A stretch of DNA of 20,000 bases from an uncultured virus (IMG/VR IMGVR_UViG_3300032069_000750) (IMGVR_UViG_3300032069_000750); one strand, 5' to 3'; positions 4,093-15,754 are shown, counted from the first letter of the stretch. Made by a program: numbers and translations. The notes: generated by a model not told the origin, from the letters alone.

Positions 4093-4959
4093 ATGAAGGT
4101 CGCTGTCATACGAGTGGATGGAAAGCTAGCCAATTTAGCGCTAATGAAGATCTCCAGTTGGCACAAGAAACAAGGGGACGACGTGGTGCTCGTGGATCTC
4201 TCCGGCATGGAATTCGACCGGATATACGCGTCCCAGGTGTTCGCGGGCGGGTCCGGCTACGACCTCGAGGCGAAGCTCCCGGACGAGATCGAGCACTGCA
4301 AGCCGGACTACGATTTGTTCAACGCCGACTACAGCATGGGGTTCACGAGCCGCGGATGTGTACGGAACTGTAAATTTTGTATCGTTAGAAGAAAAGAGGG
4401 GAAGCTACAAGAGCACTCACCCTTCAAGGAATTTGTCGACAACCGGTTCCAGAAGATCATCCTCATGGATAACAACTTCCTCGCAAGCCCGAAGGCCAAT
4501 GAGAATCTCCACACTATCATCAATAAGAAGTGGAAGGTAAACTTCAATCAGGGACTCGACCTCCGGCTGATCAACGATGAGAACGCCGAGATCCTCAGCA
4601 GAGTGAAGTACTACAACTGGACGTTTTCGAGGAGGCTTATCCATTTCGCGTGGGACAGCATGAAGGACGAGGACGACATCATGGTCGGGCTCCAAACCCT
4701 CCTGAATTACATCCCGTCGCACCACATCATGGTGTACGTCCTGGTCGGGTTCGATACTGGACTGGTACAGGACCTGTACCGTATAAAAACGCTCGCGGAT
4801 CTGAAAGTGAAGCCGTTCGTCATGATCTACAATAACAAGAGAGATCCCAAGCTCCGACACCTCAGCCGATGGGTGAACAAACGGTACTACGAGGTCGTCA
4901 CCTGGGAGGAGTACCTCAAGAAGAAGATTTCGGTTAAGCACGTTAACCGAAAGTCTTAA
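4093..4959 (+). CDS. Radical SAM protein, phage/mobile-element type
   Basis: SRGCVRNCKFC (CxxxCxxC), NLALMKISSWHK, DNNFLA, FNQGLD, VYVLVGF motifs. Confidence 0.92.
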   Translation: MKVAVIRVDGKLANLALMKISSWHKKQGDDVVLVDLSGMEFDRIYASQVFAGGSGYDLEAKLPDEIEHCKPDYDLFNADYSMGFTSRGCVRNCKFCIVRRKEGKLQEHSPFKEFVDNRFQKIILMDNNFLASPKANENLHTIINKKWKVNFNQGLDLRLINDENAEILSRVKYYNWTFSRRLIHFAWDSMKDEDDIMVGLQTLLNYIPSHHIMVYVLVGFDTGLVQDLYRIKTLADLKVKPFVMIYNNKRDPKLRHLSRWVNKRYYEVVTWEEYLKKKISVKHVNRKS

Positions 4960-5066: not shown

Positions 5067-5879
5067 ATGTCGAAAATCGAGGAGTACTTCGAGGGATTCA
5101 TCAACCGGTCAAGAGCGACCGAGCGGCTGCACAGGAAGGTCCTCAACCAGTACGACGCGTTCGTCGACAGCGACGAGCAGCTCTACACGGTGCACACCGT
5201 CGAGCGGTTCCTGAGGAAGTGCAAGAACCGCGGCCTGGAGAATATCTCGATAGCGACCTACACCTCCGTCCTGCGGTCGTTCCTCAAGTTCCTCGGGACG
5301 CCCGACAAGGAGCTCAACGCCGTGCAGGCGCCCAGGGTGGGCTTCAAGATAAAGCAGGCGATCGACGAGGACCGCTGGGTGAGCTTCCTCAAGCAGCCGA
5401 GGACCCTGAGGGACATGGCGATCGCCCACGTCCTGCTCTACGGGGCCTCCCGGGTCGGCCAGCTCCGCAGGATACGGGTCGGAGACATAAACTTCGAGAC
5501 GAAGATGATCGTCATAGAGGGCATGAAGGACGCGAAAATTCAAAGCTCGCTGCAGGTCAACGCCGACACCATGGACATCCTACAGACCTACATAAAGGCG
5601 TACAAGCTCACGAAAAAAGACTACCTGATCACCCTCTCGGAAAGGCGCATCGAGCAGCTGGTAAAAAAATGGGCCGTCGCGGCTCGGATCCCGAATGCGG
5701 AGAAGATAACCCCGCACAGCCTCCGCAGGAGCCTCGGGAAGGCGTTCTACAAGAAAAGCGGGAAGGACATTGAGAAGACACGGATCATCCTCGGCCACAA
5801 GAACATCTCCTCGACCCAGCACTACCTCGCTATCGAGGAGGAGGAGGTCAGATCCGACTACGACAGATTATTTGGGTGA
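5067..5879 (+). CDS. Tyrosine recombinase/integrase (XerC/XerD-like)
   Basis: Catalytic set: SRVGQL (R), GMKD (K), PHSLRR (HxxR), LGH, TQHY (Y). Confidence 0.95.
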   Translation: MSKIEEYFEGFINRSRATERLHRKVLNQYDAFVDSDEQLYTVHTVERFLRKCKNRGLENISIATYTSVLRSFLKFLGTPDKELNAVQAPRVGFKIKQAIDEDRWVSFLKQPRTLRDMAIAHVLLYGASRVGQLRRIRVGDINFETKMIVIEGMKDAKIQSSLQVNADTMDILQTYIKAYKLTKKDYLITLSERRIEQLVKKWAVAARIPNAEKITPHSLRRSLGKAFYKKSGKDIEKTRIILGHKNISSTQHYLAIEEEEVRSDYDRLFG

Positions 5880-6449: not shown

Positions 6450-6590
6450 ATGCCAGGACGAAGATTAGGTATTCTGGAGGGTATTCAGCCCCCAGGCGGA
6501 TTACTCAAGACCGAAGCAGGGAAGGGGCCGCTCGGGCTGGGCATCATACCCAGCATCCAGGAAAGAGTGAACAAGATCCTTAAAAGATGA
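6450..6590 (+). CDS. 46-aa Gly-rich protein with amphipathic C-terminal helix (not in ORF track)
   Basis: GGAGG RBS; MPGRRLGILEGIQPPGGLLKTEAGKGPLGLGIIPSIQERVNKILKR; stop 4 bp before the next ATG. Confidence 0.7.
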   Translation: MPGRRLGILEGIQPPGGLLKTEAGKGPLGLGIIPSIQERVNKILKR

Positions 6591-6594
6591 TAGC

Positions 6595-6990
6595 ATGGAG
6601 AAATCGGTATTGGATTCTCTTCTCGAGTCGTTCGAGGAGAGGGTTCGTGGCGCTCGGTTGATTGACTGGATTGCACATGAGAGCCCAGGGATACTCGTGA
6701 ATCCCGCTCGCGCCGAGGCAGATCCAGTGTGCAAGTGCTACGGCATTGATGGAAAATCTCTATGCTTTCATGCGGGCGTGATCGGAGGGCTTGATGAATC
6801 CCAGAAAAGCGCCTACTGCAAAACGATCCACACCGAGGAGAGCCCGGAGCTGAAAGAGAGGGTCAGGAAGTTCCGGGAGGCGTCTGATGTCTGCGTGCAG
6901 GAGTGCGTGACCCTGCCGAAGGGCGAGAGGCTCGGTTGCAGGCTGTCGTGCATGTCCAGGGAGCTCGAGAAACGGGGCCTCAAAGTATAA
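6595..6990 (+). CDS. Cys-rich hypothetical protein with twin CX3C motif
   Basis: 8 Cys; C-terminal CVQEC-x10-CRLSC helical hairpin. Confidence 0.8.
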   Translation: MEKSVLDSLLESFEERVRGARLIDWIAHESPGILVNPARAEADPVCKCYGIDGKSLCFHAGVIGGLDESQKSAYCKTIHTEESPELKERVRKFREASDVCVQECVTLPKGERLGCRLSCMSRELEKRGLKV

Positions 6991-6997
6991 ATACTTT

Positions 6998-7091
6998 TTG
7001 AAAATACGTTTTCAACGCGGTATTTAAAGAATTGAAAATGAGCGGTTTTTGTGTCCGTCATATATAAATCTTTTCAAAATACGTTTTGAAA
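6998..7091. promoter_or_regulatory. Pair of related palindromes sharing an AAAATACGTTTT core
   Basis: ttgaaaa-tacg-ttttcaa (6998-7015) and tttcaaaa-tacg-ttttgaaa (7072-7091). Confidence 0.55.
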
Positions 7092-7197
7092 GACGGCAAG
7101 CACAAAATTTTTATCCCCCAGCCCCCATACATCCGTGGCAGGCAGGATAATATTTGAAATATTACTCCTAGTTCCTCCCTTATTATCCTGCGGCCAG

Positions 7198-7755
7198 GTG
7201 GTGAGGAGCATCCCCTCTGATAGGAAGAAGCCGCTGAGAGATCTTCTGTTGCCGAGGACGACAAGCCTTCGCCCTAGATCCCTGTTTGACACATCATTTA
7301 CCTACGAACAAGCACTGGCCTCGGAGGAGCCCGGTACGGGGGTGGAAAAAGTTCCCTCTTCTCCCCCCGTATCTGGGACATCGATACGTGAGTCGAAGAC
7401 GACCGCGTGCATCCCCTGCGTGAAAAACCACTTGAGTGCCGTGGCGGGCATACTTTCCGAGTCGAAACGGTTCATATCCAACGGCATCAAAGATCCGAAG
7501 ATAGTGGAGGCGATCGACATAGCGACCAAGGAGCTCACCGCGGCCGAGAGGGGAGATCTTGACCCAGCGAAAGTCGCCTCGTTGCCCGAAAAGGAGAAAG
7601 AGGTCGCGGAGTGGGCCGCCGAACAGACCCGGGATCTCCGGCACAGCATCGACGGCATACGGGACAAGGAGACCCTCGAGGAAGCGATCGTCAAGGCGGA
7701 TCAGATAAACAAGGAGATGATCTCGAAGTTCATCGACCTCGTGGGGACTTTCTAA
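7198..7755 (+). CDS. CxxC-containing helical-bundle protein (start uncertain)
   Basis: Disordered N-terminal region, then ACIPCVKNH and several amphipathic helices; GC3-rich codon usage. Confidence 0.7.
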   Translation: MVRSIPSDRKKPLRDLLLPRTTSLRPRSLFDTSFTYEQALASEEPGTGVEKVPSSPPVSGTSIRESKTTACIPCVKNHLSAVAGILSESKRFISNGIKDPKIVEAIDIATKELTAAERGDLDPAKVASLPEKEKEVAEWAAEQTRDLRHSIDGIRDKETLEEAIVKADQINKEMISKFIDLVGTF

Positions 7756-7813
7756 TTTGAAATCATAATATTTAAACATGCCTTTCTTTTTTAATCAATA
7801 TATCTAATAATAA

Positions 7814-8737
7814 TCAAGGAGTTTCTAATTTGCTTTTATCGTTATTATTTATCATGCTACCTAAAATCTTATCACGTTCTTCTTTAGAAACTTCTATATC
7901 TTCACCTACTTCCAACATTGTTTTTAACGATATTTCTTCTGCAATAAACGATTTGCTTTCTTTCCATTCTCCCGTTTCTTCTCTCCAAATTATAAGTTTA
8001 TTCTTCAGAAATGTCGGTAGCCAAATTCTTACTCTTTCAGGATGATTTACCAAATCCTCTTTTGATTCCGTATAAATGTCATCTTTTCCATGATGAAAAC
8101 ATTTCAAACTTCTTTTACCCATTATCGTCCGTATGTGTTTTGTTCTGACAATCTCTATAGATTGTATATCCATAGGTTTACGTGTCAAACCTGGCAACCA
8201 TCCATCACGCTGTTCTACAGTGCCTGCTCCTAATAACTGATATGTACCACTAAAAGATGCAAAAGCACAACGGACACCATCATAAAATTTATCCTCATCA
8301 CTTGCGGGATTATACGGACGTTCATGATAATTCGGGTCTTCAACAGGCAATTCCAAAAGAATAATATCTTTTATGAAAAGCCTGTCTGAAATTGGTGTAT
8401 CCGTTAACTCATGCCCATCATTTCGGAAATCAAACCTACTGCAAAGTCTGTCTACTTCATCTAGTTCTTTGACAAAGTTTTCCCAATCGTTACTTTTATC
8501 GAATCTGCTCCCATTCACCCATAAAGGTGTTGAAAAAACTAGAGTCTGTCCAGGAACATATAAATTTGGATAAGTCTGTTTTGTTCTAAACATCTGAGTT
8601 TCAGTTCTTGGTATATCATTTTCATAGATTCTGCATGCTTCGATAGTTATCCGTTGAACATATATATTATCTGGCAATCTCGGTATCAATTCTCTCAAAT
8701 GGGCAGTAGTCAAGCATGGTTCATTTCTTGTCACCAT
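7814..8737 (-). CDS. Hypothetical protein, 307 aa, in AT-rich island
   Basis: Long ORF with AAAGGGA upstream, co-oriented downstream of the ParB gene; no family recognised. Confidence 0.8.
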   Translation of the reverse strand: MVTRNEPCLTTAHLRELIPRLPDNIYVQRITIEACRIYENDIPRTETQMFRTKQTYPNLYVPGQTLVFSTPLWVNGSRFDKSNDWENFVKELDEVDRLCSRFDFRNDGHELTDTPISDRLFIKDIILLELPVEDPNYHERPYNPASDEDKFYDGVRCAFASFSGTYQLLGAGTVEQRDGWLPGLTRKPMDIQSIEIVRTKHIRTIMGKRSLKCFHHGKDDIYTESKEDLVNHPERVRIWLPTFLKNKLIIWREETGEWKESKSFIAEEISLKTMLEVGEDIEVSKEERDKILGSMINNNDKSKLETP

Positions 8738-8759
8738 AGATTATTTTTCCCTTTTTAAT

Positions 8760-10130
8760 TTATCCCAAGTTATATTTGTCTAATCTTTCTTGGTAGTCTT
8801 CCTTTTTTATCTTATTTGTCTTCAACAATTTATCCAGACTAGCAATATATGAACTGGCTACCTCATCGAATTTCTTAATCAAAGTCCCGAGTTCCCGTTT
8901 CATCTTTTCAGCCTTATTCCTAACCTTATCTTTATCCTTGATTTTCTTCTGAATATCATGTACTTTATCCAATATATCTTCTATCCGCTTCTGGATATGG
9001 TCTTCATTTACATGACTGCCGCAATAAACGCAGCTCTCTTCCTCAAGTTCTTTCTTACCAGTTATCAATTTCTCCCGTTTGACTTCAAAATCATCATTGC
9101 AATCATCCAATAGCGTATTCTTTGTTAACCCCATGACAAAATTATCCATACCGTTATAGATTTCATCAGCGTAATCACGATACTTCTCATCCTTCTTCCT
9201 ACTACGAAACGCAGGGATTTCAATGCCATCATCTGATTCTATTAACTCTTTTGGCAATTCTTTTAAAATAGAATTACTGGAATCAGGTTTCAACCAATTA
9301 GCTATATCTCCCTCTATCCAAGTAGACATTTCTCCAATCCGCTTATCTAAACTTTTCTCAAGAGTTTTCAACTCTTTTTCTAAGATTTCATCACTTTCCT
9401 TATATGCTTCAAGAATCTTAGAAACATATTCATTGATAACAGAAGCATCTTCTTTACCCCATTTTTTCCATATCGTCATCATCTGTTCTTGTGATTCTTC
9501 TTTATCTCCCATCAACCGTAATCTAGCTATGACTTCTGCCGTCGTTGTAACTAATCGTGCATCTTTTTCATCAATTTCTTCAAAGAATGTTTTAATGGTT
9601 AGTTCCTGCAATTCCTCAGGCAATGCAAGAAGGGGAAGGCGATGTTCTATGATGGTTGGTGTGGTCCCTAATTCTTTTGCAAGTTTTATAACTTCAGGAT
9701 GACCATGACTGGGAAGGGGGGGTTCACCACTGGTGACCGATTCTGTTTGTGGCATATACAACTGCTCTTTGTGGAGAGCAAGCATCTTGAAGAACCATCC
9801 TGCTTCATCAATCGGGTTAAGCTGTTCACGTTCAACATTTTCTTTATATGACTTTAACATAGCAGTTTTATCATCCATATCCTGAACGGTGCAAACAACC
9901 TTTTCATTTTTGTTGTACAAATCCTTTAAACAGTAATATCGCCTCATTCCTGCAACAACTTCATATTTTCCGTCTTTTATTGGTCTAACCAATACCGTCT
10001 GTAATTGTCCATCTGTTTTCAATGATTCTTTCAATGATTCCAGATATTTCTTGGTCATCCGCTTTCTTGGGTTATATTTATTCGGTTCTAATTTACCTAA
10101 TTCAATTTCCATTATTTTCACATCTTTCAT
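8760..10130 (-). CDS. ParB/Srx N-terminal domain protein with coiled coil and zinc-hook-like CxxC
   Basis: PNKYNPRK..L.ES.K.DGQLQ.VLVRP..YEVVAGMRRY..EN.ERE.LNPIDEA; HTH-like LAKELGTTP; C-terminal CVYCGSHVNEDH between heptad-rich helices. Confidence 0.88.
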   Translation of the reverse strand: MKDVKIMEIELGKLEPNKYNPRKRMTKKYLESLKESLKTDGQLQTVLVRPIKDGKYEVVAGMRRYYCLKDLYNKNEKVVCTVQDMDDKTAMLKSYKENVEREQLNPIDEAGWFFKMLALHKEQLYMPQTESVTSGEPPLPSHGHPEVIKLAKELGTTPTIIEHRLPLLALPEELQELTIKTFFEEIDEKDARLVTTTAEVIARLRLMGDKEESQEQMMTIWKKWGKEDASVINEYVSKILEAYKESDEILEKELKTLEKSLDKRIGEMSTWIEGDIANWLKPDSSNSILKELPKELIESDDGIEIPAFRSRKKDEKYRDYADEIYNGMDNFVMGLTKNTLLDDCNDDFEVKREKLITGKKELEEESCVYCGSHVNEDHIQKRIEDILDKVHDIQKKIKDKDKVRNKAEKMKRELGTLIKKFDEVASSYIASLDKLLKTNKIKKEDYQERLDKYNLG

Positions 10131-10259
10131 CTATTTTTCCTCCTTGACAATTATTATTTTTGCTTTTCTTCCATTCCATTGGGTGAGTCCTATAATCCGA
10201 CCATCTTTTATTTCTTTTTCTAAAATTATCTCCACATTATCAATTTCCATTTTAGTCAT
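10131..10259 (-). CDS. 42-aa DUF2080/AbrB-like small protein (not in ORF track)
   Basis: GGAGG RBS; MTKMEIDNVEIILEKEIKDGRIIGLTQWNGRKAKIIIVKEEK; stop abuts the ParB ATG. Confidence 0.6.
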   Translation of the reverse strand: MTKMEIDNVEIILEKEIKDGRIIGLTQWNGRKAKIIIVKEEK

Positions 10260-10445
10260 CAGATTGCCTCCATAGGCATTTTTAGTGGTATATTCTTGCA
10301 CTATTATAATACTTTCGGTGTTATCTTATATACTTGGAGAGACATATAGAATATTAGGATATGTAACCTACATCAAACCATCAATGTGAAATAGTAGAAA
10401 GAAAGAGTAATTAACCACCAACGCCATAATATTTTTTGTGATACT

Positions 10446-10673
10446 ATGCAAGAGGAGACGCACTATTGTTTCTGCTGCATGGAGCCGTTCCAGGTGGTGA
10501 TGCCCCCGAAGGGCCACGAGTCGAACAACCCGGAGGGCTGCCCCGTGTGCGGTTTCTTCAGGTGCCCGCACTGCGGGAAGTGCGCCTGCGACCTCCAGCC
10601 TGGGGAGAAGCGGGTGCTCGAGGCGTTCTGGCAGACCCACTGTAGCGCATCGTGCGGAAAAAGACGGAGGTGA
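10446..10673 (+). CDS. Zinc-finger protein
   Basis: CFCC..CPVC..CPHCGKCAC. Confidence 0.75.
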   Translation: MQEETHYCFCCMEPFQVVMPPKGHESNNPEGCPVCGFFRCPHCGKCACDLQPGEKRVLEAFWQTHCSASCGKRRR

Positions 10674-10676
10674 ACC

Positions 10677-10877
10677 ATGGTAGAATCATGCTCATGTGAA
10701 GAGTTAAACAAGAAGATAGATCAGCTCATTGAGCAGACAAGATCCTGCTCTGCAGTAAGAGGCAAACGTGCCCCGAGCGAGTGGCAGAAATTCCTTCATA
10801 TGTGCCTCCCCAGCAAGACAGGGCTCCTGCCGGAGAGGATAAAGGCATGTAGCACTAAGTACAAGCAGAGGAGATAG
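10677..10877 (+). CDS. Small basic protein with HMG/YABBY-like motif, paralog A
   Basis: GGAGGTGA RBS; CSCEE coiled coil, then KRAPSEWQKFLHMC..IKACSTKYKQ. Confidence 0.75.
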   Translation: MVESCSCEELNKKIDQLIEQTRSCSAVRGKRAPSEWQKFLHMCLPSKTGLLPERIKACSTKYKQRR

Positions 10878-10879
10878 GG

Positions 10880-11098
10880 ATGGCAAGAGACTTTTGTAGC
10901 TGCGAAGAAATATCAATGATGTTCGAGCAGATCCTCGAGATCCTGCAATCTGCGCCCGCCCCTGGTGCATCAGGGGCAGTAATGCGTAAGAAACGCGCGC
11001 CATCAGAGTACAACCTGGCCATCAAGGAGTGCATGACCGGGGGTCAGAACAGCATGAAGGAATGCGCGGCCGAGTACAAGCAGAAAAAGGGGATGTAA
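10880..11098 (+). CDS. Small basic protein with HMG/YABBY-like motif, paralog B
   Basis: CSCEE.. KRAPSEYNLAIKEC..MKECAAEYKQ; clear similarity to the previous ORF. Confidence 0.75.
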   Translation: MARDFCSCEEISMMFEQILEILQSAPAPGASGAVMRKKRAPSEYNLAIKECMTGGQNSMKECAAEYKQKKGM

Positions 11099-11599
11099 AT
11101 GGTTTACGAAGAGGGTGGCACAGAAGGTTTGATGATCAGACAGAATGGAAAAAAGCTCTGTGAATGCCCCATAGACACTACGTTAGTTCAGCTGAAACCC
11201 ATACGGCCAGTCCCAGAGATCAAAATTACTGAACCGGACGATGTCGTCCGAGCGATGAAAGGCATGGAGGACTTCGACAGGGAACACATGCGGATCCTGC
11301 ACCTTGACACAAAAAACAGGGTTGTTGGCATTGAAACAGTAAGCATAGGGATACTCGATGCCGCTCTTGTGCACCCCAGGGAAGTACTAAAGGGAGCACT
11401 GCTCGACAACGCGAGCGGGATCATCATGGTCCACAACCACCCTTCAGGGAGCTGCGAGCAGTCACAGATGGACAAGGATGTAGCGAAGTCGCTCAGTGAC
11501 GCTTGCAAGATCGTAGGGATAAAATTCCTGGACAACATAGTTATAGCTAAAGAATGTTACAGCAGCAAAGAGTGTCCAAGTTGCATTATTCCAAGTTGA
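11099..11599 (+). CDS. radC: RadC-like JAB/MPN domain protein
   Basis: DREH..LDTKNRV..VHPREV..HNHPSG..S..D..LD; extra Cys at both termini. Confidence 0.92.
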   Translation: MVYEEGGTEGLMIRQNGKKLCECPIDTTLVQLKPIRPVPEIKITEPDDVVRAMKGMEDFDREHMRILHLDTKNRVVGIETVSIGILDAALVHPREVLKGALLDNASGIIMVHNHPSGSCEQSQMDKDVAKSLSDACKIVGIKFLDNIVIAKECYSSKECPSCIIPS

Positions 11600-11603
11600 T
11601 ATC

Positions 11604-11828
11604 ATGACCGAAGAGTGCTCCCCCTGCAAGCAGATGATGGCCGCCGTCGTCGCGGTCGGGATATGCGAACGGGCCAAGAAAGAGGGCCTTGACTGCAGGC
11701 AGCTCACCGACGACCTCATAAACAAGAGGATAACCACGAAAGAGTTCATAGACAAACTCAAGCTCGAGCTCAAGGACGATCCGGAGAACCTCGCGATCAT
11801 TGAGAAGGTTGAGAAGATAATAGCATAG
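11604..11828 (+). CDS. Small four-Cys helical protein
   Basis: CSPC..GIC..LDC..ITTKEF; similar layout to 13065-13286. Confidence 0.75.
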   Translation: MTEECSPCKQMMAAVVAVGICERAKKEGLDCRQLTDDLINKRITTKEFIDKLKLELKDDPENLAIIEKVEKIIA

Positions 11829-12018
11829 CCTCTTTCTTGTCTTTTGTGACCGGCAAAATGAACTGTTTCCCCCCGCGGTCCCTCATGAGGAGAATGATCG
11901 CGTCCTCGAAACTGTACGACTTGTTGTCCTGAAGCTCGTAGAGGTTCTTGAATTTCCTCAGCTCGTCGTGGGTGAGCTTGTGGACCCGGATGTTTTTGTA
12001 CATGACCCTTGTTGGCAT
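11797..12018 (-). CDS. Ribbon-helix-helix-like DNA-binding protein
   Basis: KNIRVHKLTHDELRKFK..SFEDAIILL matches the archaeal RHH/VapB-like pattern. Confidence 0.65.
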   Translation of the reverse strand: MPTRVMYKNIRVHKLTHDELRKFKNLYELQDNKSYSFEDAIILLMRDRGGKQFILPVTKDKKEAMLLSSQPSQ

Positions 12019-12096
12019 AGTGAACACAGTACACAATGTTTGCATAATATTTAAATCCTACCAAGTTTTCAATCACATCAAAGAAAGGTGAAATGA

Positions 12097-12354
12097 ATGT
12101 CCGTAATAAAAAGCTTGACCAAAGGCTTCTACCTCAAAAGCCGACCAAAAGCGTACAAGGCGAGCGACGCCGCGTATCCGACCGGTGGGAACCAGGGTTA
12201 CGTGATCGCGAGCCTCCCGCGCGAGTACCCGATAACGTCCCAACAGAAAAAAGTACGTGAGGCCGCTCACGGCTGTGGGATCCACAAAGGCATCAGCAAG
12301 TCCGCACTGCAGAAGGCCATGGTCGACTGCGTCGGTCCCAAGATGATCCACTAG
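12097..12354 (+). CDS. Small basic protein, paralog C
   Basis: AAGGTGA RBS; GYVIASLPREYPITSQQKKVREAAHGCGIHKGISK..MVDCVGPKM. Confidence 0.8.
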   Translation: MSVIKSLTKGFYLKSRPKAYKASDAAYPTGGNQGYVIASLPREYPITSQQKKVREAAHGCGIHKGISKSALQKAMVDCVGPKMIH

Positions 12355-12455
12355 AGGAGCTAGAACAATCATCGTTCCCTCCCCCCTTTTTTTCTTTTTC
12401 GTTAACGTTAGTTTTAACGTTAATTTTAAGTAGCACCAAACCCTTTGTTTCTCCC

Positions 12456-12671
12456 ATGACCGAGTACGCTGGCGGAGAAAAGGGTTTCGTCCTCAAGGCG
12501 CGACCTCGGAAGTACCCGATGACCGAGCAGCAGAAAAAAATGAGGGGCGTCATAAAAGAGTGCGGGATCAAGAAGGGGATAAAGAAGGCCGAGCTACAGC
12601 GCCTCATGGTCGAGTGCGTCGGGCCGAAGATGCAGAACCACCAAGGTGAGACTGACCAGGCAAGCGCCTAG
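12456..12671 (+). CDS. Small basic protein, paralog D
   Basis: GFVLKARPRKYPMTEQQKKMRGVIKECGIKKGIKK..MVECVGPKM; aligns with paralog C. Confidence 0.8.
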   Translation: MTEYAGGEKGFVLKARPRKYPMTEQQKKMRGVIKECGIKKGIKKAELQRLMVECVGPKMQNHQGETDQASA

Positions 12672-12976
12672 TGTTTTTTCTTTTTTTGGATCCCGAGTTT
12701 TTCCCGGGCCCGTTTCGTCATCTCGCTGTGTTTTTTCAGGTCGATGACTGATCCTTTTTTCTTGAAGACCATGCAGTAGCAGGCGTTCGCCTCCCGGATC
12801 TCCTCGAGCGCCTCGGGGCATGGGCAGGTCTTACGCCAGTGCACCAGGCAGGGGCACGCGTCACCGTACAGAGAACACACATAGGCCTTGAGCTTTATGT
12901 CGACATCAGGGTTGAGATCAAAGCCGTGTTTTTTCGCGTAGATCTCCCATTTTCTGAGTATCTCTTCAAGGCTCAT
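12668..12976 (-). CDS. Ferredoxin-thioredoxin reductase catalytic subunit-like protein
   Basis: YAKKHGFDLNPD..YG..CPC..CPC..EEI....CYC..F matches the FTRc CPC/CPC/CxC signature. Confidence 0.85.
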   Translation of the reverse strand: MSLEEILRKWEIYAKKHGFDLNPDVDIKLKAYVCSLYGDACPCLVHWRKTCPCPEALEEIREANACYCMVFKKKGSVIDLKKHSEMTKRAREKLGIQKKKKH

Positions 12977-13064
12977 AATCGTCCCCTACATTTTAATTTC
13001 CCTTTTGAATAGTTTTTCCTGATCAGCATATCAGCATAGTTTTTCATTAAAAACTCGTATAAAT

Positions 13065-13286
13065 TCATAGTTTCACTTCCGCTAGTTCATCCCAGGTCTT
13101 GAAAAACTTCTCCTGGTCGAAGTTTTTCGTGATCGTGTCCATGACCTCCTCGATGGGTATCTTGTTGTCTTTGAAGTCCTGGATCGCGGTCTCGCAGACC
13201 TTCCGGTTCCCGAGCCTGTCGCACACCCTGATCATGTGCTCGCAGATCCGGCATTTCTCGTCCTCGTTCATGCTGCTTTCGTCCAT
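13065..13286 (-). CDS. Small four-Cys helical protein
   Basis: MDESS..CRIC..VC..VC..IPIEEV; start inferred at 13286. Confidence 0.7.
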   Translation of the reverse strand: MDESSMNEDEKCRICEHMIRVCDRLGNRKVCETAIQDFKDNKIPIEEVMDTITKNFDQEKFFKTWDELAEVKL

Positions 13287-13556: not shown

Positions 13557-13646
13557 TCATTTCAGGATCGTGTGCACTGCCTTGACTACTTTCTGGCCTA
13601 TCCCGAGGACGGCCTCGCAGATGTCAGTGACAAAGCTCAGTATCAT
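13557..13646 (-). CDS. 29-aa amphipathic peptide (not in ORF track)
   Basis: AAAGGAGGTGA RBS; ATGA overlap with the upstream gene; MILSFVTDICEAVLGIGQKVVKAVHTILK. Confidence 0.7.
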   Translation of the reverse strand: MILSFVTDICEAVLGIGQKVVKAVHTILK

Positions 13647-13855
13647 GGTTCACCTCCTTTGAAGCTCCCCGCGCAGGGGGCTATTCCGATGTTCAGCTTG
13701 TTGCACCACTGGCACACCAGCATCTTTTTTTGTCGCCGGTGCCTCCCGCGGGAATCCATAATGATAAACCGCAGCTCGGCATAGTACCGGTTTTTCTCCG
13801 TCTCCGGGGTCTCCGTGACGGATCGCCCACATATAGAGCAGTTTTTAGGTCTCAT
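13643..13855 (-). CDS. Small Zn-binding protein
   Basis: AAAGGAGG RBS; CSIC..CQWC. Confidence 0.75.
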   Translation of the reverse strand: MRPKNCSICGRSVTETPETEKNRYYAELRFIIMDSRGRHRRQKKMLVCQWCNKLNIGIAPCAGSFKGGEP

Positions 13856-14674: not shown

Positions 14675-15754
14675 TTAATCTTTTTTGTAGACCTCCACGA
14701 GGTCCCGGTCGATCTCGACCGGTTTCTTGAGCGTTTTAGATGTCATTCCATGGAACAGGACCATGTACCCGGTCTCCGTGACCTCCGTGATCTCACCGAT
14801 AAGACGCGCCTTTGTTCTCAGGATCACGAAACAACCGATCTCACTATTTTCCCTTACTCTTGTTTTCTCTGTCGTTTCTAAAACTGGTTCTGTTTTGAAT
14901 TCTGGCTCTTGTGTGGTTGGCTCTGAGACCTGTTTCTCAGATACCTCTTCCAGGGGTACCGCTCTTGTTGTTTCATCTTCTTGTATTATCCTGGGTGCCA
15001 GTAAGTACTGTACCCTCAGGTACTCGGTCTCACCGGTTATACGAGTCGGATGGTTATAGTCAAACTCCATAGTGATAGTAGGAAAATACTTCTTGACCGC
15101 TTTAACGACCGGATGTAAAAATTCATAGCCGTAGACGGACCGTTTGTCGTTATCCGAAGTGACCGCTACAATAAGCGCCTTAGGGATTGTCGCCTCGGAG
15201 TTCTCGGTCCCTTCGTTTTCATCATATCTTTTGACAATCAATCCCTGGGACGTAATCGAAAAGCTTATGTCCCTCATAAAACTCTTCTTTTCCCCTTTGG
15301 GCATCACCCGCTCCATTGTCGAAAGGTACTGATCCGTTCCGAGTTGCACTATTTTTTTGAGGGTAAGCGCGGGTAGCTTAAACTCAGGGTACCCCTCGGG
15401 GTCGATAAGACCGAATGTCCGCATAAGGTTATCATTATAGGCCACGAGCCTGTTTTTTTCAGGGTCGTACGTGAAAAGGAGCATGTCCTTATTTTTGTAC
15501 AACTTCAGGTGGTCTCTGAGCTTGTCAAGGTCTACAACGATCTCGAGCTCTCCCGAGTCATTCTCGCTAAACGACGGGTCGTACTCCTCGCAGGCCTCCT
15601 TTTTCAGGATAACGAAGAGCATCGACACATGACCGGGGTCTAAGGCCCACATGTGGATGCCGTCCTTCTGAAACACCAGCTTTAACTCGTTGGTCATGGG
15701 CTTGAAAAGGTCCACGACCGCTTGTATTTTCTCTTTTTTTATGCTCATACGCAT
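14675..15754 (-). CDS. pcn: Divergent PCNA (DNA sliding clamp) with C-terminal extension
   Basis: ALDPGHVSM, VDLDKL, NRLV..N..R.F.LID..G..P.L, YLLAPRI; about 100 extra residues follow. Confidence 0.85.
   Translation of the reverse strand: MRMSIKKEKIQAVVDLFKPMTNELKLVFQKDGIHMWALDPGHVSMLFVILKKEACEEYDPSFSENDSGELEIVVDLDKLRDHLKLYKNKDMLLFTYDPEKNRLVAYNDNLMRTFGLIDPEGYPEFKLPALTLKKIVQLGTDQYLSTMERVMPKGEKKSFMRDISFSITSQGLIVKRYDENEGTENSEATIPKALIVAVTSDNDKRSVYGYEFLHPVVKAVKKYFPTITMEFDYNHPTRITGETEYLRVQYLLAPRIIQEDETTRAVPLEEVSEKQVSEPTTQEPEFKTEPVLETTEKTRVRENSEIGCFVILRTKARLIGEITEVTETGYMVLFHGMTSKTLKKPVEIDRDLVEVYKKD

Follow-up and report, generated by a model that had tools for sequence, protein, structure and literature searches.

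The 20,000-nucleotide stretch analyzed here (the window; IMG/VR entry IMGVR_UViG_3300032069_000750, from an uncultured virus) appears to be a portion of a mobile element or virus of archaeal type, from anoxic sediment. Its central part raises the question of what a gene resembling those for FTRc, the catalytic subunit of ferredoxin-thioredoxin reductase, might be doing amid a cluster of small cysteine-bearing proteins. An earlier note had placed this gene, at 12668–12976 on the minus strand, at the center of an element-encoded disulfide system taking in at least eight small neighboring proteins. We address here (i) whether the gene product truly belongs to the FTRc superfamily; (ii) which of the neighboring proteins are specifically tied to it; and (iii) what the resulting combination might do for the element.

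The first point can be answered with some assurance, and in line with the earlier note: judged by homology and predicted fold, the 102-residue product of 12668–12976 is a genuine compact, stand-alone member of the FTRc/FDR superfamily. FDRs are described in PMC6262447 as Fe-S enzymes related to FTRc, one of which reduces Methanosarcina thioredoxin (Trx). The window protein (CPC-X7-CPC-X12-CYC) matches PF02943 with an E-value of 2e-4, and all eight of its homologues do so at E ≤ 0.1, the best at 5.5e-5; these homologues form eight clusters, the window protein's own and seven more at 59–75% identity, and the six cysteines (residues 41, 43, 51, 53, 66, and 68) are invariant in all of them. Its top match among PDB sequences is 4tpu, the FDR of Methanosarcina acetivorans, which aligns over residues 4–83 with the three cysteine motifs in register. 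The AF2 model (pLDDT 82.7) points the same way: the top eight of 11 Foldseek rows are all FTRc or FDR entries, albeit at weak E-values (0.03–1), and VIA gave Z scores of 9.0 for 7pwe_B (93 residues aligned from positions 1–99 of the model, root-mean-square deviation 3.4), 8.0 for 4tpu, and about 6 for plant and cyanobacterial FTRc over 74 residues. The close clade of the enzyme also shares an invariant basic C-terminal helix (H83, S84, M86, T87, R91, L94, G95, and I96), which most compact relatives lack.

An exhaustive profile search with the enzyme retrieved 65 representatives at E ≤ 1e-3, nine of them at E ≤ 1e-10, thus placing it within a wider compact family. Most of the compact relatives are stand-alone proteins of 75–135 residues with the pattern CPC-X5-8-CPC-X12-CxC; PF02943 was detected at E ≤ 0.01 in 22 of the 34 scanned, and few were above the Pfam cut-off. 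Relative to archaeal FDR (X14/X12), seven residues of the first spacer have been lost in this branch. Two of the relatives, P0040 and P0042, are tandem-duplicated compact FTRc-like proteins in which one repeat is partly degenerate, an arrangement that suggests that the working unit of these proteins is a dimer. PHROGs yielded no match for the enzyme and, for one of 30 compact relatives, a family of unknown function; the best hit of the enzyme model in a BFVD fold search had an E-value of 3.4, and a tblastn search of phages with the enzyme returned no match and did not find gp5 of crAss001, a phage protein to which we return below.

Directly upstream of the enzyme gene, on the same strand, lies a gene for a 73-residue orphan helical protein with the pattern CxxC-X6-C-X8-C (13065–13286, minus strand), which we refer to as family B. 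The window encodes a second member of 74 residues at 11604–11828 (plus strand; CSPC-X12-C-X9-C), which was recovered with the family B profile (P0208, E 2.4e-15) and whose cysteines align with the four columns that are invariant in all 17 family members found by profile search. The upstream, co-directional placement seen in the window recurs in all four of the close comparison loci that have sequence at this point (L001, L002, L003, and L005; L004 is cut), in each of which the family B gene overlaps the start of the enzyme gene by 29–38 nucleotides; in the window, an 88-nucleotide gap lies between them. Furthermore, the two families are similarly narrow in distribution, with 17 clusters for family B and eight for the enzyme, and seven of the eight enzyme contigs recur, by size, in the family B list (67198, 65067, 54421, 36549, 12025, 945, and 796). 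Among the neighboring small cysteine proteins, family B is the only one specifically tied to the enzyme.

The position that family B occupies can be compared with that of known carriers in cellular genomes. In 401 sampled Thermoplasmatota genomes, the enzyme profile matched eight, strongly only in one metagenome-assembled genome (MAG; G001); one of the weaker matches (L020, in G232) is spurious, having an E-value of 1e-3 and no cysteine motif. Five of the matched genes are FDR-like, and each has a PF00462 glutaredoxin (Grx) gene directly upstream; the four that were scanned match PF02943 at 1e-22 to 1e-25, the fifth (L023), which is cut, having been left out. A sixth, compact gene of 77 codons overlaps a PF00085 thioredoxin gene. 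Thus, a gene for a thioredoxin-fold CxxC protein adjoins all six true cellular FTRc-like genes in Thermoplasmatota, which implies that family B holds the slot of the dithiol carrier. The genes around three of the Grx-FDR pairs (L018, 2501–6418; L019, 1201–3785; L022, 417–3697) include, as read from the sequence, rubrerythrin-like and desulfoferrodoxin-like ORFs, and nitroreductase-like and ABC-ATPase ORFs were read beside Thermoplasmatota Grx-FDR pairs in the same manner. At these three loci the Pfam scan covered the Grx and FDR genes; on this reading of the surrounding ORFs, the neighborhoods would be oxidative-stress clusters.

The strong match in the G001 MAG comprises more distant FTRc-like genes on two contigs (L006 and L007): their products are 59–62% identical to the window protein and keep the six cysteines, and both genes follow a gene for a PCNA fusion protein and lie near RadC.

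From these observations we propose, with a probability that we would put at roughly 45%, that the enzyme and family B form a ferredoxin-driven thiol-reduction module that serves the element during replication. By analogy with solved FTRc structures, we take four of the six invariant cysteines of the enzyme to bind a [4Fe-4S] cluster and the other two to form the redox-active disulfide. Electrons would be drawn from host ferredoxin, and the enzyme would use them to reduce a disulfide on a small dithiol carrier; by analogy with the cellular gene pairs, that carrier in the element lineage may be family B, taking the place of the cellular glutaredoxin or thioredoxin. The module would then aid the replication phase; it might, for instance, supply reducing power to host enzymes that depend on thiols, or reduce proteins of the element itself. 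In its favor, the enzyme gene follows a PCNA-like gene, on the same strand, in all five contexts with enough upstream sequence. Homology, fold, cysteine conservation, synteny, and distribution are what the analysis shows; cluster binding, the electron donor, catalysis, and the partnership with family B are inferred from them.

Several findings weigh against this proposal. The Pfam scan, which took in 35 ORFs of the window, found no ferredoxin, thioredoxin (PF00085), or glutaredoxin (PF00462) gene. Family B does not have a thioredoxin fold, its neighbors in an Atlas search being generic helical bundles with TM scores of no more than 0.51, and its four invariant cysteines, lying within 20 residues, fit a metal site as well as they fit a redox dithiol. 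Neither MAG copy of the enzyme gene has a family B gene nearby, nor was one found elsewhere in that MAG, so family B is not a universal partner. As for the enzyme, its match to PF02943 scores 21.8 bits, 0.2 bits below the gathering cut-off of 22, and its first spacer is seven residues shorter than that of archaeal FDR (X7 versus X14), a difference that could change its activity. Finally, the synteny was observed entirely among members of a single element lineage and so does not amount to independent evidence. A complex prediction for the enzyme, family B, and a 4Fe-4S cluster scored 0.01 against a mark of 0.32, and counts neither way.

The other neighbors of the enzyme can be judged from the same loci. 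Gene order around the enzyme in the five close loci, which come from metagenomes (L001–L005), is that of the window, the enzymes being 53–61% identical to the window protein. In all five, two genes of a further family (family A) lie downstream of the enzyme gene and convergent with it, followed in four (L001, L002, L004, and L005) by the counterpart of 11797–12045 (minus strand), a conserved small protein of this syntenic block that has no conserved cysteine; L005 retains families D, E, and C, the integrase, and PCNA as well. In the MAG contigs L006 and L007, a zinc-ribbon gene is convergent with the enzyme gene instead of family A, and, as with family B, no gene of families A or C was found near the FTRc-like genes or elsewhere in that MAG. 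In addition, the long family A contigs (92390, 53179, 51859, 49375, and 48544 bases, and others) have sizes unmatched among the enzyme contigs. Families A, C, and D and the ORF at 6595 are linked to the enzyme only by synteny among close relatives. No distinct locus emerged when viral contigs were scanned with family A, with the enzyme, or with the enzyme alignment, and we assume the few confirmed stretches to be the window's own contig.

Family A is a large family. Its two genes in the window are paralogous (blastp, about 1e-20): a long form of 85 residues at 12097–12354 and a short form of 71 residues at 12456–12671, both basic, both on the plus strand, and both with an invariant C-X17-C, the 3' end of the latter overlapping that of the convergent enzyme gene by four nucleotides. 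A profile search at E ≤ 0.01 found at least 424 clusters (at 90% identity). In the 120 homologues listed, both cysteines are always kept and, with one exception, are the only ones (119 of 120); members are 64–107 residues long, mostly 83–86, carry on average about +12 net charges, and usually occur as two tandem paralogues, on contigs of up to 92 kb. The AF2 model of the long form (pLDDT 86.9, pTM 0.48) comprises a beta-hairpin, a helix at 48–59, a loop at 60–67, and a second helix at 68–84, so that C60 falls just after the first helix and C78 ten residues into the second. Judged from secondary structure alone, these two cysteines are unlikely to staple a single molecule; they could join subunits or contribute to a shared metal site. 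The model matched no PDB fold (best Foldseek E-value 0.37; best VIA Z score 3.8, to generic helical hairpins), and the Atlas search returned nothing useful. Two coat proteins of filamentous archaeal viruses appeared at Z 3.2–3.6, in a tie with unrelated rows. The family A profile had no match in the 401 sampled Thermoplasmatota genomes. As a large, unannotated, very basic two-cysteine family, it is probably important to this element group, in whose nucleoprotein or virion it may have a place.

The remaining small proteins were found where the earlier note had located them, and its cysteine patterns and paralogue pairs proved accurate. The 131-residue, eight-cysteine protein at 6595–6990 (plus strand) has a twin CX3C (C100/C104 and C115/C119); residues 79–127 weakly match phrog_28243, and no homologue was found in the comparison loci or, by tblastn, in phages. 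Family D (7198–7755, plus strand) carries CIPC-x3-H where its C-terminal region begins, and CIPC is kept in both sequences compared, the second being a 49% identical homologue in L005; it has no Pfam, NCBIfam, or PDB match, the NCBIfam model DpdH appearing only far below its cut-off. Family C consists in the window of two tandem paralogues (10677–10877 and 10880–11098, plus strand; blastp E 1.3e-8) with a CSC...C...C pattern, and its four cysteines are invariant in all five members. These two genes make up the third predicted pair, alongside those of families A and B. The region also includes family E (10446–10673, plus strand), a 75-residue protein with 11 cysteines, among them CPVC-x4-CPHC, that we read as zinc-ribbon-like and whose 61% identical L005 homologue keeps 10 of the 11, and the ORF at 13643–13855, with cysteines in a zinc-ribbon-type pattern. 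The description of all eight proteins as helical, with cysteines stapling pairs of helices, is not confirmed; family A, the one family modeled, combines a beta-hairpin with a helix-loop-helix. Overall, cysteine accounts for 3.4% of residues inside the region and 1.9% outside it among the selected ORFs, and the homologues assembled indicate that the neighboring small proteins are real families whose cysteines are conserved far beyond chance. Searches of families A to D and the 6595 protein produced no meaningful Pfam or NCBIfam match, and those of the same proteins against PDB sequences produced only chance-level rows. Across the window, 14 of the 16 proteins scanned against NCBIfam had no match.

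The main rival to a module of enzyme and family B treats the enzyme as an auxiliary redox gene. It would pass ferredoxin electrons to host thioredoxin or glutaredoxin, so that host enzymes that depend on thiols (ribonucleotide reductase, for instance) would have more reducing power while the element replicates. Family B would then be a small protein with a metal-binding or regulatory function, unrelated to the enzyme with which it happens to share an operon. The MAG copies, which lack family B yet keep all six cysteines, fit such a role, as does the position of the enzyme gene downstream of, and co-directional with, a PCNA-like gene in all five contexts with enough upstream sequence (the window, L003, L005, L006, and L007). 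Cellular FDR genes are, moreover, paired with genes for the very carriers in question, and gp5 of phiCrAss001, a lone compact FTRc-like gene, has been read as auxiliary metabolism. This explanation does not account, however, for how tightly the enzyme gene is paired with that of family B, often with an overlap, or for the matching and narrow ranges of both families; and neither ribonucleotide reductase nor any thioredoxin-fold gene was found by Pfam among the window ORFs scanned. On balance, we consider it somewhat unlikely. A non-catalytic role, in which the cluster of the protein would sense redox state and control genes of the element, would resemble in its logic that of the phage-borne WhiB-like Fe-S regulators. 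It would suit a gene lying among small regulators and replication genes, and the basic C-terminal helix that is invariant in the close clade and missing from most compact relatives might be thought to serve it; that helix also aligns with solved FDR chains (7pwe_B), however, the pair of cysteines presumed to be redox-active is as invariant as the cluster ligands, and neither Pfam nor NCBIfam detected a DNA-binding domain in the enzyme. We regard a sensor as a long shot.

The broadest interpretation is that of the earlier note, in which the enzyme switches disulfide-locked packaging or virion proteins (families A, C, and D and the 6595 protein), with a CxxC helical protein acting as thioredoxin. 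The strict cysteine conservation in families A, B, C, and D, the presence of such families beside the enzyme in all five close loci, and the strongly basic character of family A are all compatible with it, and a family A monomer, having exactly two cysteines, could not alone build a four-ligand metal site. The distribution of family A, on the other hand, is at least 15 times wider than that of the enzyme in the same database (at least 424 clusters versus eight), its long contigs have no counterparts among those of the enzyme, the enzyme copies in G001 occur without families A, B, and C, a simple staple within family A looks unlikely from the model, and no thiol oxidase was found among the window ORFs scanned. 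A system embracing all eight proteins is thus not supported, and we judge it improbable. Of the co-occurrence that it implied, only that of the enzyme with family B is upheld: family A is far more widespread than the enzyme, and the synteny of the other families with it is confined to close relatives of the same element. Its idea of a CxxC helical protein as a stand-in for thioredoxin survives insofar as family B occupies the Grx/Trx position and has a similarly narrow distribution, and falls short at the MAG copies. One could also imagine a relay devoid of thioredoxin folds, in which the enzyme and a family B carrier would act on the abundant family A proteins. Within a nucleoprotein or virion, disulfides or metal sites common to several subunits would cross-link the latter, and genome packaging or release would be gated by the low-potential redox state of the host; we would give this slim odds. 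The two-protein module of enzyme and family B remains the reading that we favor.

The setting of the enzyme gene agrees with an archaeal-type element. Genes identified in the window by Pfam and PHROGs encode an HNH endonuclease, a papain-family peptidase, a radical SAM protein, a tyrosine integrase, a ParB-like protein, RadC, an archaeal-pilin-like protein, and a PCNA-like protein, and the enzyme gene sits in a replication-proximal block together with the integrase, PCNA-like, RadC, and archaeal-pilin-like genes. Neither tRNA genes nor a capsid hallmark gene was seen in the window. Among sequencing runs, the DNA was located solely in a sediment metagenome, which is probably its source, and in no RNA run. 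The integrase (5067–5879, plus strand; PF00589, E 6.7e-18) has a 64% identical copy in L005. The PCNA-like protein (14675–15754, minus strand; PF00705, E 3.1e-5) is encoded upstream of the enzyme gene and co-directionally with it. The PCNA-like proteins of the MAG elements carry a fused C-terminal domain whose last residues read ...WIAQTVKKVE (L006, 8254–9651; L007, 8285–9640), and the same domain ends a separate 276-residue ORF just downstream of PCNA in L005 (6824–7654). The RadC-like JAB protein (11099–11599, plus strand; PF04002, E 1.3e-36) does have the additional cysteines at both termini that the earlier note had pointed out (residues 21, 23, 153, 159, and 162). A low-GC block on the minus strand (7814–10301; GC 0.36–0.37 versus about 0.5 elsewhere) holds a 307-residue ORF, the 456-residue ParB-like protein (ParB_N, E 2.2e-17 by Pfam), and a 56-residue ORF; since the flanking families D and E adjoin each other in L005, the block was probably inserted later. 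L005 also lacks RadC and the family B gene at 11604 (together 11099–11828) in the interval that separates family C from the 11797 family. Elsewhere in the window, the radical SAM protein (4093–4959) matches phrog_9298 at E 4e-69, has a CX3CX2C motif at residues 89–96, and hit two radical-SAM models of NCBIfam far below their cut-offs; the papain-family C1 peptidase is encoded at 1555–2328.

By way of FTRc-like enzymes, anaerobes link low-potential ferredoxin to thiol chemistry, and few of the partners of these enzymes are known. The locus points to a compact branch that lies mostly at or below the Pfam threshold, that would have been taken up by archaeal mobile elements as it has by a gut phage, and that in one lineage would be coupled to an orphan four-cysteine protein in the usual Grx/Trx position. 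Should family B turn out to be a redox carrier, this class of enzymes would gain a new partner without the thioredoxin fold. In the open-access literature searched, we found no report of an FTRc-like gene on an archaeal element, and crAss001 was the sole viral case found.

That a virus can carry a compact FTRc-like gene is thus already known: gp5 of phiCrAss001 is annotated as a putative ferredoxin-thioredoxin reductase and read as auxiliary metabolism in the account given in PMC6235969. It has 65 residues with the pattern CPC-X8-CPC-X8-CHC, and all six of its cysteines align with those of the enzyme family (hhalign probability 79.7%, E 1.5e-5). Like the window enzyme, gp5 is a virus-borne, stand-alone compact FTRc-like protein of an anaerobe; unlike it, gp5 is encoded among tRNA genes, has no family-B-like neighbor, and belongs to a phage with a bacterial host. 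In the crAss001 locus examined (L026, 999–5800), gp5 lies inside a tRNA gene array near a Dps-like gene.

A more distant comparison is with poxviruses, whose E10R/A2.5L/G4L pathway oxidizes thiols by way of an Erv/ALR flavin oxidase and a thioredoxin-like protein. The analogy drawn in the earlier note is not supported, as Erv/ALR, thioredoxin, and glutaredoxin were all without a match among the 35 ORFs; the two have no more in common than the notion of a thiol-disulfide relay encoded by a virus, and the window enzyme would, by homology, be a reductase. Classical FTRc (2pvg, 7bzk) is closer, sharing with the window enzyme the six-cysteine signature, PF02943, and the core fold (Z about 6 over 74 residues). 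Its spacing is X16/X8 with CHC as the third motif, unlike the CPC-X7-CPC-X12-CYC found here, and, in contrast to the heterodimeric enzyme, no variable subunit FTRv (PF02941) was found at E ≤ 0.01 among the 35 ORFs.

The closest likeness is to archaeal and bacterial FDR, as represented by 4tpu and the Desulfotalea Grx-FDR fusion 7pwe, with which the enzyme shares motifs in register, a CYC third motif, the X12 second spacer, and the fold (Z 8.0 and 9.0, respectively). It differs from these enzymes in its first spacer (X7 versus X14), in having neither a rubredoxin nor a glutaredoxin domain, and in being encoded on a mobile element; and unlike the Methanosarcina FDR, which has 173 residues in 4tpu and whose type carries a C-terminal rubredoxin domain, it ends at residue 102 without an additional cysteine motif. 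As in the cellular Grx-FDR pairs, a gene for a CxxC protein lies immediately upstream of that for the enzyme; whereas the cellular partner is a glutaredoxin or thioredoxin, that of the window is a helical four-cysteine orphan with no thioredoxin fold.

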